Below are positions 4,149 to 30,889 of a DNA stretch of 64,000 nt, piece after piece. Source of the DNA: Escherichia phage vB_Eco_mar004NP2; sequence record NC_048205.1. One strand, given 5' to 3'. How positions within the stretch are numbered: position 1 is the first letter of the stretch; every line of letters starts with the position of its first letter. The position numbers and the translations under genes were made by a program. The notes below the pieces were generated by a model that did no database searches, was not told the DNA's origin, and saw only the letters and a program-made list of their open reading frames with translations.

Positions 4149-4429
4149 TGTTGATTGAAATTCTTATTGGGTTACTAGTTCTTACTACACTAGTAGCGAT
4201 TGGTGGAGTTATTGGGATTGTGAATGCACGAAAAAACATGGAAAGTATGCTTAGTACTAATGATGGACTACACCACCGTTTGCTAGAGCAAGAGCAAGAT
4301 ATTGAATTAGCACAAAGACGCTCGGATATTCTTAAGGAAAAACTAAATAGTATAGAAGCAATAGTTGGGAATAATAAATTACCGGCTAAAGTAATGCGTA
4401 CACAGATAATCACGGAGATTAAAAAATGA
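4148..4429 (+). CDS. small membrane protein with coiled-coil tail (93 aa)
   Basis: N-terminal TM helix LIEILIGLLVLTTLVAIGGVIGIV then charged helix. Confidence 0.55.
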   Translation: MLIEILIGLLVLTTLVAIGGVIGIVNARKNMESMLSTNDGLHHRLLEQEQDIELAQRRSDILKEKLNSIEAIVGNNKLPAKVMRTQIITEIKK

Positions 4430-4671
4430 TGATGTTTATTCTAGCATTTTATCTAATCGTGGTGGGAGTTCTAGTTACTAAGTACCATACATGGGCACCA
4501 AAGAATGTAGTTAAGGTAGCACTATTTGTTATTCCAGTCCCACTTATTATACTTTCTATGTTACTGGTGATGTTAATTGGTAAAGTGACGAAGACCGATA
4601 TTAAACGCATTGCTGATGAATTGCAACAGTCTTGTGATATGGTAGAGGATATTCTTAAAGATGAAGCTTAA
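4426..4671 (+). CDS. small two-TM membrane protein (81 aa)
   Basis: two hydrophobic segments; ATGA overlap with upstream gene. Confidence 0.55.
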   Translation: MMMFILAFYLIVVGVLVTKYHTWAPKNVVKVALFVIPVPLIILSMLLVMLIGKVTKTDIKRIADELQQSCDMVEDILKDEA

Positions 4672-4987
4672 TTTTAATGAATTAAATACCTTACATGAGA
4701 TACTACAGTTTGTGAATAATAATATTAGCATTCCAGATGACACGCTAGAAGTTCTCATGTTAATCGAGAAAAAGGTAGGAATTGAAATTGAGGATTCTTG
4801 GAAACCACTTTCTGTATTAACACCACTTAATATGAAAGTGATAGTTAAAAATATTGATACTGGTGAAGAGTGTGAAATGATTCGTAAAGAACTAGCTGAT
4901 AGCTATTCACCAAAGTCTGTAGTAATGTACCATGATGATACCGCTAAGACTCTACAGACAGCTAATTATGTATGGCGTCTCCCATGA
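4661..4987 (+). CDS. hypothetical protein (108 aa)
   Basis: ORF. Confidence 0.5.
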   Translation: MKLNFNELNTLHEILQFVNNNISIPDDTLEVLMLIEKKVGIEIEDSWKPLSVLTPLNMKVIVKNIDTGEECEMIRKELADSYSPKSVVMYHDDTAKTLQTANYVWRLP

Positions 4988-10190: not shown

Positions 10191-10400
10191 AATACGAATG
10201 ATAATGAGAATCATTCGTATTTAAAAAGCGGAATAAGAATGATAATAGTTCTCATTTAGAAAGTGAAATGAGAATCAATCTCATTTAAGAAAGGGAATGA
10301 GAACTATTCAAAAAATGAAATGATTCTCATTTAAAAAATGGAATGATTATCGGTTAGATAGTGAAATGCGAATGATAATGATTCTCATTTAAGAATGGAA
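10191..10400. repeat. cluster of short palindromes AATGAGA-N-TCTCATT (hairpin/operator-like)
   Basis: at least 5 palindromic units read directly; extra copies at 10727-10747 and 19721-19738. Confidence 0.75.
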
Positions 10401-10420
10401 GCGAGAAACACTATTATTTA

Positions 10421-10530
10421 AGTTACCCACAGACTTATTAACAGCACGATTTGATTTGACAGAATCCTAGCCATTTTGAGGCGTTATCAACAGACTTATC
10501 CACAGCTTATCCTACTGTATAAATATACAG
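10421..10530. repeat. left arm of ~110-bp inverted repeat with DnaA-box-like sites and 16-bp palindrome
   Basis: reverse complement of 14001-14110 aligns with identical blocks AGTTAYCCACA..TTATTAACAGCAC and ACTTATCCACAG..TTATCCTACTGTATAAATATACAG. Confidence 0.8.
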
Positions 10531-10788
10531 TATTCCTACGCAGTGAATAATTCTAATATAGCGTTAAAACGTCCTAAATCGCATTCTAACGCGCTTAATT
10601 TTGATGGGGATACTAAAACAAGGGCAAAATTGGAGGAGGCTTAAAAATTAGTTAGCTTGCTAACGATCACACAAGGCGACACGTAACACCCTAATCATTA
10701 GCAGGCTAACCATCACGGGCGCGGTTAAATGAGAATCACTCTCATTTGAGAATTGGGGGCACTCCCTGGTAGTTGCGCCCCGTTATTA

Positions 10789-12742: not shown

Positions 12743-13735
12743 TTACTCGCTTTCGGTGCTAGTGGTAAAAGTAGAAATATCGATACCTTTCACCATTTCA
12801 TCAATCATTTCAGCGATGTTAAAACTTTGCACCATTTCTAGCATTGCCGCTTCCATAGCTGCGCCTGCTACCGCTTTCGCTTTCTGGTTATTCGGGGCGT
12901 ACTGGTCAACCGCTACGCTCAGCAGGTTAGCAATAACTACCCGACCAATCGGCGTATCAATATAACCTTTAATCATAAACGGCGCTTTTTTAGCCGCTAC
13001 TTTCGTGATTTGAGTCAATGCAATTTTGCCAGCTTCCAGTTTTGCAGCATTTACAACAGCGGATTTATTAGCGGCAACGATATTAGCGATCTTGGTCATG
13101 GTATTATTTCCTTTGTTTTCAGTAGTTTGAGTGTTAACGCTTTGAGTGTTAGAATTTACAGCATGTTTTTCCGTGTTGTCAATAGGCTGATCTTCCTCCT
13201 TCCAGAAAGAAAAGCCCGCGCTTTCAATATCCCCATCATATACATAAGGGTACACTTCCGACGGTAACAAAAAATTACCGTTATCATCAAAGGCCATTAC
13301 AGCCGCGAAACGATACCCGTCACAATCCGACCGATTCCAGCCAACTGATAAATAACGCCAAAATGAATCAAGAAAATTTTCAATATCATAAAGATCATTG
13401 GGGTTGGCTTCATAATTTTCTATTGAAAAAACTTCTAAGCCTGCCCCAGTATCATAGGCTTTTACTGTGCTACCTTTTACGATTATGAAATCAGTATCCG
13501 GCCCTCGACTAGTGAGCAATTGATAATCTTGATTATATAAAACAAGCGTTGCCCCTTGTTTATATAACGGTAGAAAACTATTCATATCATAGGCATCGAA
13601 ATCACCAAAAAAGTTTTGGTGAATAGTTTCAGCCTTGTTAATAAAATGTTTAATGCTGGTTGTTCTGCTACCGTCCAGCAGGTTACGCAGCGCACCTTTT
13701 AAGACGGTTGCGTTATCTGGTTTATATAGCCTCAT
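12743..13735 (-). CDS. hypothetical protein (330 aa)
   Basis: ORF with RBS GAGGGAGG; first gene of minus-strand cassette. Confidence 0.6.
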   Translation of the reverse strand: MRLYKPDNATVLKGALRNLLDGSRTTSIKHFINKAETIHQNFFGDFDAYDMNSFLPLYKQGATLVLYNQDYQLLTSRGPDTDFIIVKGSTVKAYDTGAGLEVFSIENYEANPNDLYDIENFLDSFWRYLSVGWNRSDCDGYRFAAVMAFDDNGNFLLPSEVYPYVYDGDIESAGFSFWKEEDQPIDNTEKHAVNSNTQSVNTQTTENKGNNTMTKIANIVAANKSAVVNAAKLEAGKIALTQITKVAAKKAPFMIKGYIDTPIGRVVIANLLSVAVDQYAPNNQKAKAVAGAAMEAAMLEMVQSFNIAEMIDEMVKGIDISTFTTSTESE

Positions 13736-14000
13736 TTGTTGGCCTCCCTCGTTAATCGGTGAGTGAATGATAAAGGCAATTTTCTAGCATAGGCAAATAT
13801 TATTTTACCTTTTTATTTTCCTTGCCTAGCGCCTAGTTTTATGCTAACCGCGCAGCGGTACAGTAAAGAGCAAAACACGGTGAAGCCACCAGGGCGACGG
13901 GTGAAGGCTTCACTTTAATATTACCCCACCGCATTTAGCTCGTTAGAAAGCGTTTTAGGCCGCCTAAAATTGATTGCAGTTGTTAACACTACCTTTTTAC

Positions 14001-14110
14001 CCTGTATATTTATACAGTAGGATAACATGTGGATAAGTCTGTGGATAAGTCCTTATATCGTCGCCTATCGTGTCAAATCATTTTGTGCTGTTAATAAACT
14101 TGTGGATAAC
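14001..14110. repeat. right arm of ~110-bp inverted repeat with DnaA boxes
   Basis: TGTGGATAA at 14027-14035, 14039-14047, 14100-14108; palindrome CTGTATATTTATACAG 14001-14016. Confidence 0.8.
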
Positions 14111-14392
14111 TTAAATGATAGTGGTTCTCACTTAGGACGATAGTTTCTTATAGTTATTATTTCTATCGGTTACGATTTCTTATAATTATTATTTCTCATT
14201 AATTTATAAGTATATTATATATCATGAAATAGTTAGTTGGCTAATGAGATTTTCCGTGATTAATAGTCTGCTAACAGTTCCGGCTGTTACAATCCACCAG
14301 CATGATTATCATCCTAGCAACTATTAGTCTGCTATCTTTCCGATGCATACTAACAAATAAAAGTCAATTAATTTATTTCATAAAATAAGTAG

Positions 14393-14425
14393 TTATCCAC
14401 TGGAAAATAAAAGTCAAGTGGATAA
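14393..14425. promoter_or_regulatory. inverted pair of DnaA boxes
   Basis: AGTTATCCAC..N17..GTGGATAACT, perfect 10-bp inverted repeat matching DnaA-box consensus TTATCCACA. Confidence 0.6.
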
Positions 14426-14826
14426 CTAGGAAAATTTCATTTTTGCTTTTGGGGATAAGTTATCAACAAGGCTAGAATGCGCCTAAAACGCCCTATAACG
14501 CGATGAAGTTTTTAGCCATGCCATTGCATTGCCTACCCTCGTTTATCGCTACCACGAGCTTTTTAGTTTTTGTCAAGTAGGGCAAGGCAAATATAAATGA
14601 AAAAATTACTTGCCAACCTGCTGGGTTTTATGGTATTCGCGCGCCCGTTTCCTTTAATTTTAGTGCGCCGCGCCCAGGTCGCCGCACGGTGTCCGGTGGC
14701 ATTTTGTCTTTACGTTTCTTTACAAAAATAAGGTTGCGCCATTTTTACTATTTGCTATTATTTATCTCGTAGGGCGGCAATGACGAACTACACGGCGGGA
14801 AGTTTACCGCCGCGCTCTTTAAAAAT

Positions 14827-15116
14827 TGGGTACATCTTAAAGTCTATCGGCGGTAAACTTATATTATAAGGAATCGCAGATATGAAACAAACTTTATTGA
14901 TCACTGGTAAACCAGCTAAAAAATTAGATGGTACTACTAAAAAATTGTTGACAATAGCCCAGCAATCCGTAAAATACCGATTTGCTCAGTACAAGAAAGG
15001 CCGCCAGCAGGGTTTAGAAATGATCTGGCGTAATATTATGATCGACCTGAAAGAAAATCATAAAAAACTGCAAAAAACAGTTTGACACCCTAGCCGATAG
15101 GCTTTAAGATGTACCC
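14827..15116. repeat. 24-bp inverted repeat pair flanking the 67-aa gene
   Basis: GGGTACATCTTAAAGTCTATCGGC (14827-14850) versus GCCGATAGGCTTTAAGATGTACCC (15093-15116), 1 mismatch. Confidence 0.7.
14882..15085 (+). CDS. small basic protein (67 aa)
   Basis: ORF with RBS AAGGAA; Lys-rich. Confidence 0.5.
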   Translation: MKQTLLITGKPAKKLDGTTKKLLTIAQQSVKYRFAQYKKGRQQGLEMIWRNIMIDLKENHKKLQKTV

Positions 15117-15315
15117 AGTTCGATGAGAGCGATAACTTGATACAATTTGACGGTTAGGTGATTCCCCATAAATCATCCTGCCCCCTAACTGGGATATAGC
15201 AGCCTGCGTGGAGTTCCTTAAATTGATTATAGCGGTGAGCGGATTGTTGCTTATTACCTGCTACTTTCTAGCAGGTAATGCGGAACAATCCCCTAAATAA
15301 CTTGGAGTTTATACT

Positions 15316-15567
15316 ATGCAAAACGTTATTACCGCGCCTAAAATTGGTCAATCCGTTTTTATTCCTTTCGTTACTAAAACGGATGAACTAACCGGAAAAG
15401 CCGAACGTATTAAAGGTGCGGCGCTTATGCCGTTTGATACAATCGACGCGGTATACGCTGAAAATGAACGTAGTAACAACGGCAAAACCGTTTTTAGCGT
15501 TCGCGTTAAATCCGGCGACGTTGTAAAGGTTGTACAGCGTAACGAAAAATGGGAAGCTGTAGCGTAA
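15316..15567 (+). CDS. hypothetical pre-early protein (83 aa)
   Basis: ORF with conserved upstream box ..CCCCTAAAT..GGAGTTT.. Confidence 0.55.
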   Translation: MQNVITAPKIGQSVFIPFVTKTDELTGKAERIKGAALMPFDTIDAVYAENERSNNGKTVFSVRVKSGDVVKVVQRNEKWEAVA

Positions 15568-15663
15568 TAGTGTTACTTTTATATCCCCCAGTAGTTCGGG
15601 GGATATAACGATTAACATTATGTTAATCTTATCCCTTAAATTAAACTAATAGGAGTTTTTACC

Positions 15664-16071
15664 ATGACTAACGTTAAAACCGCAAAATTTGCTTGGAATG
15701 AAGAAAACACTCAAAAAGCTGTTTCTATGTACCAGCAGTTAATTAATGAAAACGGTTTAGATTTCGCAAATAGCGACGGTTTAAAAGAGATTGCAAAAGC
15801 AGTGGGCGCGTCTTCTCCCGTGTCTGTTCGCTCAAAATTGACCAGCGCAAAAGCGTATCAGAAAAGCGATAAGCCTCGCAAAGTTGGCGGCGGTAGCTCA
15901 ATCCGCAAAGCTCACTATGTACGCGTTATCGCTAAACATGCTATTGATTCCGGCATTATTAAAGACGCCGACGATCTGGCAAGTCTGGAAAGTGCAAAAC
16001 TTGAAACGCTGGACGCCGTAGCGCAACTGTTAGGCGTTGCCGATGAAGTAAAACAGGCCGCAGGTGAATAA
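15664..16071 (+). CDS. hypothetical pre-early protein (135 aa)
   Basis: ORF with conserved upstream box. Confidence 0.6.
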   Translation: MTNVKTAKFAWNEENTQKAVSMYQQLINENGLDFANSDGLKEIAKAVGASSPVSVRSKLTSAKAYQKSDKPRKVGGGSSIRKAHYVRVIAKHAIDSGIIKDADDLASLESAKLETLDAVAQLLGVADEVKQAAGE

Positions 16072-16127
16072 ATTTAATTAGTGGGGAATATTCCCCACTA
16101 TAATTTCCCTTTGACTGGAGTTTTAAA

Positions 16128-16325
16128 ATGATCTTTTACCCCACTGAATCGTTAATTTTAGGCTTATTTATTATGGCGGCCTCGTTATTATTCGCTTATT
16201 TTCAAAATGATTTAGACTCATATTATTTTAAACGTAAGTCTAAATTGGCAAAGCGTTTAGGTCTGATTTGTTTTATTGCCGCCATTGCTTGTGGTGTTAG
16301 TTCTAGCCTTATGCCTTTAAATTAA
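16128..16325 (+). CDS. small membrane protein (65 aa)
   Basis: two hydrophobic segments; conserved upstream box. Confidence 0.5.
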   Translation: MIFYPTESLILGLFIMAASLLFAYFQNDLDSYYFKRKSKLAKRLGLICFIAAIACGVSSSLMPLN

Positions 16326-16422
16326 TGTTGCAAATTATAACGCCTATTATTCAAGGCGTTATATTTGGCAATATTTGCCAATAACAAACGTTTTTTAATC
16401 CCTTTAATGGAGTTTTATTAAT

Positions 16423-18087
16423 ATGATTATTTCCGCAGAAAAACAAACCGTTATCCTGAAAATGGCCGCTGACTTTAATTTCTATGGTAAACGTCTGCGC
16501 GCTACTAAACTGGAGGTCTGCGACGATATATCAAAAGCGGTCTACGATACAACAAAACACTCGACCGCTATCTGCGACTGGTTGGAAGCAAATAAACCAG
16601 CTAAACCGAAAGCGGCGAAAGTAGCAAAAGCCATTAAAAACGATGAGCGTCCAGAAGCGGCGGGGATTGTTTCTAGCACGGTTGAGCAATGGGAAGTAAA
16701 GCAGGGTAAACGCTTTATTATTACGTCGATTCAGAATAATACTTTCCCGCATAAAAACTTTTTAGCCTCATTGGAGCAATTTGCTAAATATATCGGCGCT
16801 GATTTGCTGGTTAGCAAGTTTATTTATAACAAAAACGGTTTTCAAAATGGCGAGGGTGCAGAAGGAATAAAATATGATTCCGCATTTGACAAATATATCT
16901 GCAATAAAAACGTGTTTTTAAATAACCGCCGTTTTGCTTTCATGGCTGAAATTAACGTTTTGCCAACCGCAGATTATCCGCTTTCTGGATTCGCTGAAAC
17001 TGCAACGGCGCTTAATCTGGAAGGTCTGGCAATTGGTCACGCTAAAATTACCGCTGAAAGCGTGCCAGCTTTAAAAGGTGAAGTAGTGCGCCGTATGTAC
17101 TCAACCGGAACGGCAACGCTCAAAAACTACATTCAGCAGAAAGCAGGACAAAAGGCCGAGGCGCTGCATAACTTCGGTGCGCTAATTGTCGAGTTCGACG
17201 AGGACGGGGAATTTTTTGTACGCCAGCTCGAAACGATGGACGAAAGCGGGGTATTTTATGATCTGAATGTGTGCGCTACTCCTGCCGGATGCTATGAGAC
17301 ATCGGGGCATGTTTTAGGCTTGCAATACGGCGATATTCACGCAGAAAAACTAGATGATGATTGTGCCGTTGCGTCATGGGCTGGCGAAAATAGCTTGCTT
17401 GATATTCTCAAGCCTAAATATCAGTTTATCCATGACGTGCATGATTTTACATCACGCAACCATCACAACCGCGCATCCGGTGTATTCCTAGCAAAACAAT
17501 ACGCCGCCGGACGTGATAAGGTATTAGATGATCTTATCGATACGGGGCGCGTGCTGGAATCAATGGAACGTGATTTCTCGCAAACAATCATTGTTGAATC
17601 TAATCACGATTTGGCGCTATCCCGTTGGCTTGATGATCGTAATGCTAACATTAAAGACGATCCAGCAAACGCGGAACTATATCACCGCCTAAATGCCGCG
17701 ATTTATGGAGCTATTGCAGAAAAAGACGATACTTTCAACGTGCTAGATTATGCGCTGCGCAAGGTTGCAGGTTGTGAGTTTAACGCCATTTTTCTAACTA
17801 CTGACCAATCTTTCAAGATTGCAGGCATTGAATGCGGCGTACACGGTCACAACGGCATTAACGGCAGCCGTGGCAATCCTAAACAATTTAAGAAATTGGG
17901 CAAATTAAACACCGGACACACTCACACCGCCAGCATTTATGGCGGCGTGTATACCGCTGGCGTAGCTGGTAGTCTGGACATGGGTTACAACGTTGGCGCG
18001 TCAAGCTGGACGCAAACGCATTTAATTACCTATGCAAACGGTCAGCGCACTTTGATTGACTTTAAAAACGGTAAATTCTTTGCGTAA
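16423..18087 (+). CDS. A1: A1-like pre-early protein (554 aa)
   Basis: size and position next to dmp-like gene as in T5 pre-early region; GDIH and GHNG motifs compatible with phosphoesterase-like fold (recalled, not searched). Confidence 0.6.
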   Translation: MIISAEKQTVILKMAADFNFYGKRLRATKLEVCDDISKAVYDTTKHSTAICDWLEANKPAKPKAAKVAKAIKNDERPEAAGIVSSTVEQWEVKQGKRFIITSIQNNTFPHKNFLASLEQFAKYIGADLLVSKFIYNKNGFQNGEGAEGIKYDSAFDKYICNKNVFLNNRRFAFMAEINVLPTADYPLSGFAETATALNLEGLAIGHAKITAESVPALKGEVVRRMYSTGTATLKNYIQQKAGQKAEALHNFGALIVEFDEDGEFFVRQLETMDESGVFYDLNVCATPAGCYETSGHVLGLQYGDIHAEKLDDDCAVASWAGENSLLDILKPKYQFIHDVHDFTSRNHHNRASGVFLAKQYAAGRDKVLDDLIDTGRVLESMERDFSQTIIVESNHDLALSRWLDDRNANIKDDPANAELYHRLNAAIYGAIAEKDDTFNVLDYALRKVAGCEFNAIFLTTDQSFKIAGIECGVHGHNGINGSRGNPKQFKKLGKLNTGHTHTASIYGGVYTAGVAGSLDMGYNVGASSWTQTHLITYANGQRTLIDFKNGKFFA

Positions 18088-30122: not shown

Positions 30123-30889
30123 TGTCTCTTTCCGATCTAGCTAAACAAATTATTAAAGAGCAGCTAGATACTGCAGGACGATCTGAAAATAATAAGAATA
30201 CTGTTGTATACTCTGTTGAAACAGGGCTAAAAGATCCTACCAGAGATGGTACTGTTGCTCAAGTATCTTTTAAGTTTTCAAAGCCTGTATCCCAAGATCT
30301 TCTTGATGTTAGAACAGCCTCTATACTAAAAGCTGTATCCTCTAGTTTAGATCTTTCGGGAGATTTAGGTGCTTTAGAGAATTTAATACAAGCAACCGCT
30401 GGTAAAAAATCTGCTGTAGGTAAAAAACGTTCTACAGGCAGAGTACAGGTAAACTTTGGGGATCCTAGAGACGTAGAGGATGGATACTCAGGTGCAATAA
30501 CAGGTGCTTCCGGACGTTTTGTATCAAATAGCAATATGAAGGTTATATTAGAGATAGTTGCTAAAGAGTACTTAATAAAGGATATGAAAAAGACAGGAGC
30601 GCCATTAAAATTTAGAACCGGTCGCTTTGCAAATTCTCTGAAAATTAAGGATGTTATACTTAGAGATGCAGAGACTAGTAAAGGCTCTCCTGAATTGAAC
30701 GTAACATATAATTATATGACTCGTCCATATTCTGTATTCAACCCTGCAGTATCTACGTATAGAAGATTATCTCTAAGACCTTATCCTGGCGCTAGAAATC
30801 CACAAAAACTTATTGGTGAGGCTATAGCAAAAGCTGCAAGAGACCTGATTCACTCTAGATATAAAATCAAGGTTAATCAAGGAACCTAA
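30122..30889 (+). CDS. head-tail connector protein (255 aa)
   Basis: position; coupled start. Confidence 0.4.
   Translation: MSLSDLAKQIIKEQLDTAGRSENNKNTVVYSVETGLKDPTRDGTVAQVSFKFSKPVSQDLLDVRTASILKAVSSSLDLSGDLGALENLIQATAGKKSAVGKKRSTGRVQVNFGDPRDVEDGYSGAITGASGRFVSNSNMKVILEIVAKEYLIKDMKKTGAPLKFRTGRFANSLKIKDVILRDAETSKGSPELNVTYNYMTRPYSVFNPAVSTYRRLSLRPYPGARNPQKLIGEAIAKAARDLIHSRYKIKVNQGT

Follow-up and report, generated by a model that had tools for sequence, protein, structure and literature searches.

A conserved inverted repeat adjoining a boxA-like element and overlapping the P-D/E20 promoter in the pre-early region of T5-like phages

The DNA analysed here, 64,000 nucleotides of Escherichia phage vB_Eco_mar004NP2 (sequence record NC_048205.1; referred to below as the window), contains an inverted repeat, the arms of which, GGGTACATCTTAAAGTCTATCGGC at 14828–14851 and GCCGATAGGCTTTAAGATGTACCC at 15093–15116, flank a small open reading frame (ORF) in the pre-early region. 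The right arm coincides with the core of P-D/E20, which is the next promoter, the left arm adjoins a match to the boxA consensus, and the layout is retained among T5-like phages with arms of unrelated sequence. The bracket belongs to the promoter and leader architecture rather than to the gene for the 67-amino-acid (67-aa) protein that it encloses. It is proposed that read-through pre-early transcripts form a long-range helix between the arms, similar to the leader–trailer helices found in operons for ribosomal RNA (rrn); the chances that this model is right as a whole are judged to be about even.

The two 24-bp arms are complementary at 23 of 24 positions. The first-pass annotation of the window, which had reported a near-perfect repeat on either side of a gene for a 67-aa basic protein at 14882–15085, described both features correctly; the ORF (family DUF7416) starts with ATG and has an AAGGA Shine–Dalgarno sequence at 14868–14872. 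The sole mismatch between the arms, T opposite G, is a U·G wobble in RNA of the + strand and an A·C mismatch in RNA of the − strand. With G·U pairs allowed, the helix consists of 28 contiguous base pairs, including three G·U, between the 5′ (left) arm at 14824–14851 and the 3′ (right) arm at 15093–15120 (+ strand). Beyond a 4×4 internal loop there is an outer helix of 7 bp (14813–14819/15125–15131), and a repeat search gave arms of 39 nt (82%). Both the 28-bp helix and the outer 7 bp are present in the minimum free energy (MFE) fold and in the centroid fold (z = −7.2). A near-perfect duplex of at least ~20 bp, which was taken to mark a leader–trailer helix for ribonuclease III (RNase III), is thus available in the window, and the corresponding helices of relatives have 24–40 bp.

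From base composition, the number of such repeats to be expected within 700 nt is ~3.5e-5 per window. Of the inverted repeats with a length of 20 nt or more that were listed for the window, 15 in all, this one ranks second. No further copy of either arm was found in the 64 kb with up to five mismatches, and neither arm is palindromic by itself.

The repeat as such has been catalogued before. The T5 record of Wang et al. (AY587007) includes inverted repeats IRA (4682–4706) and IRA′ (4950–4974), to which no function was assigned. These are the same sequences as the right and left arms, respectively, a window coordinate x corresponding to approximately 19800 − x in T5. In the part of the Davison preprint that was accessible, IRA and IRA′, again the same element, lie within 'Repeat Region 1', which is termed untranslated, and no function is assigned there either; the left arm is labelled merely 'repeat_region' in two other phage records. 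Neither AY587007 nor the accessible part of the preprint mentions the enclosed DUF7416 gene, the boxA beside IRA′, the G·U pattern on the sense strand, or the conservation of the layout. What is new is the adjacency of boxA and a layout that is kept despite unrelated arm sequences.

P-D/E20 (TTGACA-17-TAAGAT, 15082–15110, + strand) scored 10 of 12 in a consensus scan. The promoter of the P-D/E20 region has been much used in expression vectors. Its hexamers and their spacing conform to those of sigma-70 promoters (16–18 nt between hexamers); its activity is taken from the annotations of T5 records. The TGA stop codon of the ORF sits within the −35 hexamer, and the right arm, which begins 7 nt past the stop codon, comprises the spacer, the −10 hexamer and the start region. 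In AY692264 (Paris-Orsay T5), P-D/E20 spans the right arm together with the 3′ end of the ORF; in AY587007, a 'putative pre-early promoter T5P1' at 4663–4737 covers IRA; and in AY543070 (Moscow), the P-D/E20 feature at 4338–4664 is located just downstream of the arm. A promoter scoring 9–11 of 12 covers the right arm in all related loci.

Another promoter, P-H22 (TTGACA-16-TAAAAT, 14948–14975, + strand), lies inside the ORF and scored 11 of 12. It is annotated in AY692264 and AY543070, is named T5P2 in AY587007, and is a pre-early promoter active in vivo by primer extension (PMC7472727). The first-pass annotation had overlooked P-H22 and the identity of the right arm with P-D/E20, and had tied the repeat to the 67-aa gene. 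Because of the positions of the two promoters, transcripts from P-D/E20 lack both arms and those from P-H22 include the right arm only. Both arms can therefore be present on one RNA only in transcripts that start further upstream. In RNA sequencing (RNA-seq) data for Bas33, expression values are ~1,230 for DUF7416 and ~12,200 for the gene that follows P-D/E20, which fits strong internal promoters feeding the downstream genes.

A candidate upstream promoter, TTGCGC-16-TATTAT (14734–14761, + strand), would start transcription near 14768. Its hexamers and 16-nt spacing recur in a Klebsiella phage (locus L041) and in a metagenomic locus (L046), and Proteus phage Stubb has a near-consensus TTGACA-16-GATAAT at the equivalent spot. 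A 44-aa ORF (14597–14731, PHROG 17446), which is a gene in the annotations of several relatives and is of uncertain coding status, stops 3 nt short of this candidate promoter. No intrinsic terminator was called by the scan between the arms, at 14793–14825 or past 15116, and the sequence after the right arm, AGUUCGAUG, has no U-run; an intrinsic terminator, taken as a GC hairpin with a U-run, was rejected both at the leader hairpin and after the right arm. A mirror-image divergent promoter at the left arm was rejected as well, no usable −35 hexamer being present in any clade.

The left arm is preceded by a boxA-like element, GCTCTTTAAAA (14814–14824, + strand), which is a predicted NusB/NusE site. 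It matches perfectly the gammaproteobacterial consensus of the NusB/NusE-binding boxA, GYTCTTTAANA (Baniulyte et al.), on the transcribed strand and including the C at position 4. Two matches to the consensus were observed in the 64 kb against 0.8 expected, and one match alone is not significant; the second (30151–30161, − strand) is antisense within a coding ORF and probably due to chance. In all 75 T5-like loci with a match, boxA occupies this position on this strand, its offset from the 5′ arm being −2 to +3 nt. Directly upstream of boxA is a GC hairpin (CGGCGG-N8-CCGCCG, 14793–14812, + strand), present in the MFE and centroid folds, which occupies the place of boxB in rrn leaders and has no usable U-run behind it. 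In the leader of E. coli rrnG, retrieved for comparison (locus L076), boxA is located 130 nt upstream of 16S rRNA and follows a hairpin and the dinucleotide AC, the order of hairpin and boxA being the same as in the window.

Two alternative designs are seen after the right arm. In Tequintavirus and in loci L037, L042 and L070, the arm is followed by an inverted copy of the boxA region ('anti-boxA'), which extends the repeat to ~40 nt; in the window this is GAGAGCG (15125–15131, + strand), which complements the first 7 nt of the boxA region (14813–14819) in the outer helix. In most clades other than Tequintavirus, a second, direct boxA is located 10–17 nt past the right arm (e.g. 1362–1372 in L036 and 2523–2533 in L041). 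Stubb has four copies of boxA on the + strand, three of which were seen ~20–30 nt after a TTGACA-16/17-TATAAT-like promoter. No paper linking boxA with phage T5 was found in the literature library searched.

The leader over ~75 nt (14756–14830) is nearly identical to that of Klebsiella Sugarland-like phages (98% over 51 nt matched), and the flanks have diverged. The shared leader runs from the candidate −10 hexamer TATTAT via CGTAGGGCGGCAATGACGAACTACA and the GC hairpin to boxA. Its runs GGGCGG, CGGCGG and CCGCCG, together with CGGCGG at 14848, permit alternative pairings.

Conservation was assessed in 75 T5-like loci, which were drawn from GenBank and from collections of viral and metagenomic sequences, and an rrn locus of E. 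coli was added as a reference; just 17 of the loci came from scanning metagenome and genome collections. The repeat, the loss of which from relatives would have counted against the first-pass annotation, is present in all 69 loci with alignable arms (32 distinct arm pairs) and also in phage DT57C. The right arm begins 3–8 nt past the stop codon in all aligned loci, and 6–8 nt past it in all but one. The layout is kept in Tequintavirus, in Epseptimavirus and in the Klebsiella, Yersinia, Pectobacterium and Proteus relatives.

The arms differ greatly between clades but remain complementary, matched insertions included. Thus, GGTATAGGTTGAATATTAAAGCCTATCGGC pairs with GCCGGTAGGCTATAATATTCAACTCGTACC in L046, the arms end in CTAGTGT and ACACTAG in L050, and the arms are CCTTTCGGC and GCCGAAAGG in L051 and TTGGGATTCTATAAAAAGCGTTATCGGC and GCCGATAACGCTTTATTATAGAATCTCAA in Klebsiella phages. 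The distance from arm to arm is 241–435 nt and varies because many relatives carry an extra ORF of 55–57 aa before DUF7416.

The enclosed genes are not constant. A tblastn search showed that DT57C lacks DUF7416, and the bracket is retained there around another ORF; the −10 hexamer of DT57C became TAAAAT and the left arm was altered in step. This is the comparison of relatives with and without the bracketed gene that the first-pass annotation had put forward as a check. In Pectobacterium phage My1 there are two brackets in succession, the arms of which are unrelated in sequence, with a promoter at the end of each. In Proteus phage Stubb, a perfect 19-nt bracket (19/19) surrounds two unrelated ORFs, and its right arm lies within a consensus TTGACA-17-TATAAT promoter. 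From these comparisons, the bracket is not a property of the 67-aa gene.

Two Vibrio phages were also considered. A 26-nt repeat of phage D332 (L074) flanks a DnaA-box cluster, has no boxA beside it and seems to be a different element; GCTTAGAATGGCTTACAGG occurs there at 1227–1252, 1537–1562 and 2002–2020, one copy being inverted and two direct, and the single boxA of D332 (2334–2344) is in the A2 leader. In phage Athena, neither the repeat nor boxA was found.

Changes within the arms are not symmetrical between the two strands. Among 18 distinct arm pairs of Tequintavirus and Epseptimavirus, 97.6% of the cells are paired in + strand RNA, as compared with 90.9% in − strand RNA, and five base pairs have changes on both sides. 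In the 24-bp core of the same arm pairs, 25 cells are G·U and three are A·C on the + strand. The G·U states are common and shared between sequences, whereas each of the A·C states was seen in a single sequence (L066 or DT57C). Transitions in the flanking DNA show no bias (91 of the G·U type versus 106 of the A·C type), and because of this strand-biased mutation was ruled out as the cause of the G·U excess. When distinct mismatch states of all clades were tallied by hand, ~22 G·U and 7 A·C were counted (binomial P 0.001), some of these states possibly sharing ancestry; the most conservative count, by columns, gave 8 versus 3 (binomial P 0.07). The + strand duplex is the more stable one in 43 of 49 distinct arm pairs, which are not phylogenetically independent.

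RNAalifold, applied to the natural sequences with no imposed structure, gave the long-range helix as the main consensus feature, with 24 pairs, of which 3 have changed on both sides; of 360 cells, 3 are broken. On the transcribed strand, pairing has thus been maintained through compensatory changes and wobbles. Together, these comparisons of sequences are moderately strong evidence, though not proof, that selection acts on the sense-strand RNA, and they make an RNA-processing role for the repeat plausible. Of the RNA-level suggestions in the first-pass annotation, the long-range stem in the sense transcript is supported by the compensatory changes, the matched insertions and deletions, the + strand G·U pairs, the RNAalifold consensus and the adjacent boxA. 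Translational control is not, the Shine–Dalgarno sequence and the AUG being located 17–31 nt outside the helix.

In the proposed model, a transcript that starts upstream of 14828, possibly at the candidate promoter at 14734–14761, would carry both arms. The order in this RNA would be the GC hairpin, boxA, the 5′ arm, the Shine–Dalgarno sequence with the small ORF or ORFs, and the 3′ arm, the last being an RNA copy of the core of the next promoter, P-D/E20. The arms would pair to form the 28-bp helix and the outer 7 bp and would close a 241-nt loop containing the whole cistron, which should be translatable because its Shine–Dalgarno sequence and AUG lie outside the helix. In E. coli, a perfect helix of 24–28 bp is an expected substrate of RNase III, and by analogy the helix would most likely be cut by the host enzyme. 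The cut would free the first cistron as an mRNA of its own, both ends of which are base-paired, and the RNA of the A2–A1 operon would begin close to the native start of P-D/E20. Binding of NusB/NusE to boxA may render RNA polymerase resistant to termination, and may keep the 5′ arm close to the exit channel for RNA until the 3′ arm has come out. Such an arrangement may be of benefit to the phage. No paper combining T5 pre-early expression with RNase III was found in the literature library searched.

In the rrn operons, boxB, boxA and boxC follow promoter P2, leader–trailer helices of 25–40 bp bracket 16S and 23S rRNA and are cut by RNase III, and the proposed role of NusB/NusE on boxA is to hold the leader strand to the polymerase until the trailer has appeared (PMC10250234, PMC4807359). 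The T5-type locus shares with E. coli rrn the succession of promoter (a candidate in the window), hairpin, boxA, 5′ strand, enclosed RNA and 3′ strand, a consensus boxA, and a helix kept by covariation including G·U exchanges. Unlike rrn, the T5-type bracket encloses a protein-coding cistron of 0.25–0.43 kb and not rRNA, and its 3′ strand also serves as core of the promoter that comes next; by analogy, it is predicted to be cleaved and to bind Nus factors.

The nut sites of phage lambda also have a boxA (NusB/NusE) beside a hairpin in an early leader. In the T5-type leader, however, the order is hairpin and then boxA, and the boxA sequence is of the high-affinity rrn type (GCTCTTTAA), whereas that of lambda is weaker. 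To our knowledge, T5 has no N-like protein. In phage T7, the polycistronic early transcript made by the host polymerase is cut by host RNase III into mRNAs with structured ends. T7 is a virulent coliphage too, and a cut of the early transcript by RNase III is what is proposed, by analogy, for the T5-type phages; the T7 sites differ in being local hairpins with internal loops between genes, with no enclosed cistron and no boxA. In icaR of Staphylococcus aureus, pairing of the 5′ and 3′ untranslated regions makes an RNase III substrate and hides the Shine–Dalgarno sequence. Long-range pairing of the ends of one cistron would be common to both systems, but the Shine–Dalgarno sequence is free in the T5 type.

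Several observations weigh against the helix model. The candidate upstream promoter was not called by the consensus scan of the window and its −35 hexamer matches at 3 of 6 positions, while the Bas33 RNA-seq data are at the level of genes, in which reads from P-H22 are inseparable and transcripts spanning the arms are not resolved. Folding alone is strand-neutral, an inverted repeat folding equally on either strand, and compensatory change by itself would be seen equally if two DNA sites evolved in concert. There are exceptions to the G·U bias: two A·C mismatches occur in DT57C, the − strand is slightly favoured in this phage and in My1, L043 and L051, and neither strand is favoured in Stubb. 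The 5′ arm adjoins boxA, whereas boxC of rrn follows boxA by 18–19 nt, and in Tequintavirus the outer helix pairs with boxA itself, which is impossible while NusB/E is bound. A perfect local helix of 13 bp (14800–14812/14848–14860) would loop out the left arm and contests 4 nt of it. The loop of 241–435 nt means that co-transcriptional formation of the helix is not guaranteed, and the coincidence of the 3′ arm with a promoter core is left unaccounted for.

A wider form of the model, in which T5-like phages copy the rrn design of transcription and processing, is tentative and is considered unlikely to hold. It would comprise an rrn-type boxA after each pre-early promoter, recruitment of Nus factors and SuhB without phage N, tethering of the 5′ arm to the polymerase until the 3′ arm within the next promoter has been transcribed, excision of each small cistron by RNase III and, in Tequintavirus, release of Nus factors by the anti-boxA where the cassette ends.

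Of the other explanations, one places the function in DNA. The arms would be two binding sites for a protein of phage or host, such as a shut-off factor or the DNA-binding A2 protein, one on the P-D/E20 core and the other ~265 bp upstream for cooperativity or looping. The right arm covers the spacer, −10 hexamer and start of a strong promoter, which is a typical position for an operator. Shut-off of the pre-early genes depends on A1 according to the Davison preprint, and paired sites that co-evolve with their binding protein would mimic compensatory change. A bias of mismatches towards G·U on the sense strand is not expected of such sites, however, and the unrelated arms of My1 and Stubb would require the binding specificity to be re-invented repeatedly. 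Moreover, the spacing of 241–435 bp shows no helical phasing, the left arm is always joined to boxA, which is an RNA signal, and the arms are not palindromic. Binding sites in DNA are thus rated as quite improbable.

Alternatively, the helix may form in RNA but have another role, such as protection of the ends against RNase E and exonucleases, release of NusB/E via the anti-boxA, or action as a pause or termination hairpin that spares P-D/E20 from occlusion. RNA pairing has the same evidence behind it here as in the leader–trailer model. In Tequintavirus and in part of Epseptimavirus, boxA itself is complementary to the 3′ side, and a run of 5–6 U follows the right arm in L037, L042 and L070. 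In the window, by contrast, there is neither a U-run after the right arm nor a called terminator, and a perfect helix of 24–28 bp would need special features to escape RNase III. These variants, which are computationally indistinguishable from processing by RNase III, are assigned a low probability.

The left arm might instead be a relic, or cryptic inverted copy, of the P-D/E20 core that arose by duplication of a promoter–leader module and is kept alike by gene conversion or recombination, the modules serving mainly as joints for cassette shuffling. A role as recombination joints was reportedly proposed for the PeSL cassettes of T4-type phages by Arbiol et al. in 2010. The promoter–leader modules are indeed repeated, and in many clades boxA recurs as a direct repeat beyond the right arm. 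In Epseptimavirus, the leader of P-D/E20 resembles a shortened upstream leader (CGTAG...GCTCTTTAAAAATTTGG), the cassette content is variable, and a gene for an HNH endonuclease is inserted nearby in T5. As a minus-strand mirror of a promoter, however, the left arm scores 7–9 of 12, with a defective −10 hexamer and never a −35 hexamer at usable spacing. A neutral relic would decay, whereas complementarity with matched insertions and deletions persists across genera, and the G·U bias on the sense strand is left unexplained. A relic is considered very unlikely as the full explanation; it accounts for the origin of the left arm rather than its maintenance, and can coexist with the RNA model.

The suggestion in the first-pass annotation of a miniature inverted-repeat transposable element (MITE), or a mobile cassette inserted with the 67-aa gene, finds a likeness in the short terminal inverted repeats around a small segment and in an 11–17-nt direct repeat (the boxA motif) outside both arms in some clades, but it is extremely unlikely in view of the single copy in 64 kb, the lack of a target-site duplication abutting the arms in the window, the same position in all relatives with no empty site found and only the enclosed genes differing, the right arm being a functional promoter, the presence of the flanking motif, which is conserved, also at bracket-free promoters (Stubb), and the constant orientation of the segment in all loci with no transposase or recombinase nearby. 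An invertible DNA segment was rejected too, the ORF being always oriented as A2 and no recombinase being encoded among the neighbours.

The protein encoded within the bracket (T5p008, also T5.008; + strand) was assigned to DUF7416 using Pfam (E=7e-37) and to PHROG 4718, both of which give its function as unknown. It has 99 homologues, with identity to the window protein down to 34% in an alignment of 33 sequences. Polymorphic sites are distributed over the codon positions as 21/14/37 and are thus enriched at the third. DUF7416 is therefore a real, conserved gene, and its function has no bearing on the repeat. AlphaFold predicted a two-helix hairpin (pLDDT 76), and a Foldseek search of the PDB with this model gave no match at E<1.

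The bracket contains DUF7416 alone, the 55–57-aa ORF and DUF7416, or that ORF alone, as in DT57C. The second family has the conserved motif TVE.AE..I.FC...G.E....HKDG and was located at 4424–4594 (minus strand) in L071 (DT57C), at 2105–2272 in L041, and also in L046–L053. In T5, the HNH endonuclease gene is inserted just upstream. Judging from the sequences of these loci, the cassette content has clearly been shuffled between relatives.

Over the region 14000–16400, identity is 99.9% with the Salmonella phages PMBT29 and SPLA5b, and 92–95% with T5 and BF23. This region is the pre-early, first-step-transfer part of the Tequintavirus terminal repeat. The 67-aa ORF is the first in the pre-early gene order and is followed, on the + strand, by the DUF7177 gene (T5p007, 15316–15567), A2 (15664–16071), a gene for a small membrane protein (16128–16325) and A1 (16423–18087). 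Two local hairpins are located between these genes. One (15238–15294), in the 5′ untranslated region of the DUF7177 gene, has 26-nt arms that are 85% complementary and a 5-nt loop, and similar hairpins occur in relatives, e.g. at 1622–1675 in L043. The other (16324–16375), with 22-nt arms, lies between the small membrane-protein gene and A1, at the site of a rho-independent terminator predicted in the BF23 record.

Upstream of the 67-aa ORF is a cluster of DnaA-box-like direct and inverted repeats (TGTGGATAA/TTATCCAC, 14028–14470). It corresponds to Repeat Region 2 (IRC-spacer-IRD) of Davison, who proposed a role for it in the injection stop, and is flanked by a 27-nt inverted repeat (13934–13960/14481–14507, 78%). 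Nested inverted repeats of AATGAGAATC-like units, with arms of 21–48 nt, are present at 10238–10747; they probably represent the large region of repeats with which the terminal repeat ends on its inner side, and at which injection has been proposed to stop. An Rfam search of 13500–16500 with E up to 1 gave two chance-level matches only, and no tRNA genes were found in the window.

The pre-early genes of T5 kill the host and let the rest of the genome enter; their expression and shut-off are poorly understood, and most repeats of the T5 pre-early region have no assigned role. If the helix model is wrong, the repeat stays a conserved, unexplained feature over the P-D/E20 promoter. If it is right, IRA and IRA′ would gain a testable function, and rRNA-style long-range helices would organise and process protein-coding transcripts. 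The model of RNA polymerase as an RNA chaperone would then reach beyond rRNA, and a virulent phage would be using host Nus antitermination via an rrn-type boxA without a phage-encoded N protein. T5-like phages, which are in wide use for therapy and as models, would accordingly be predicted to depend on nusB, nusE, suhB and rnc.

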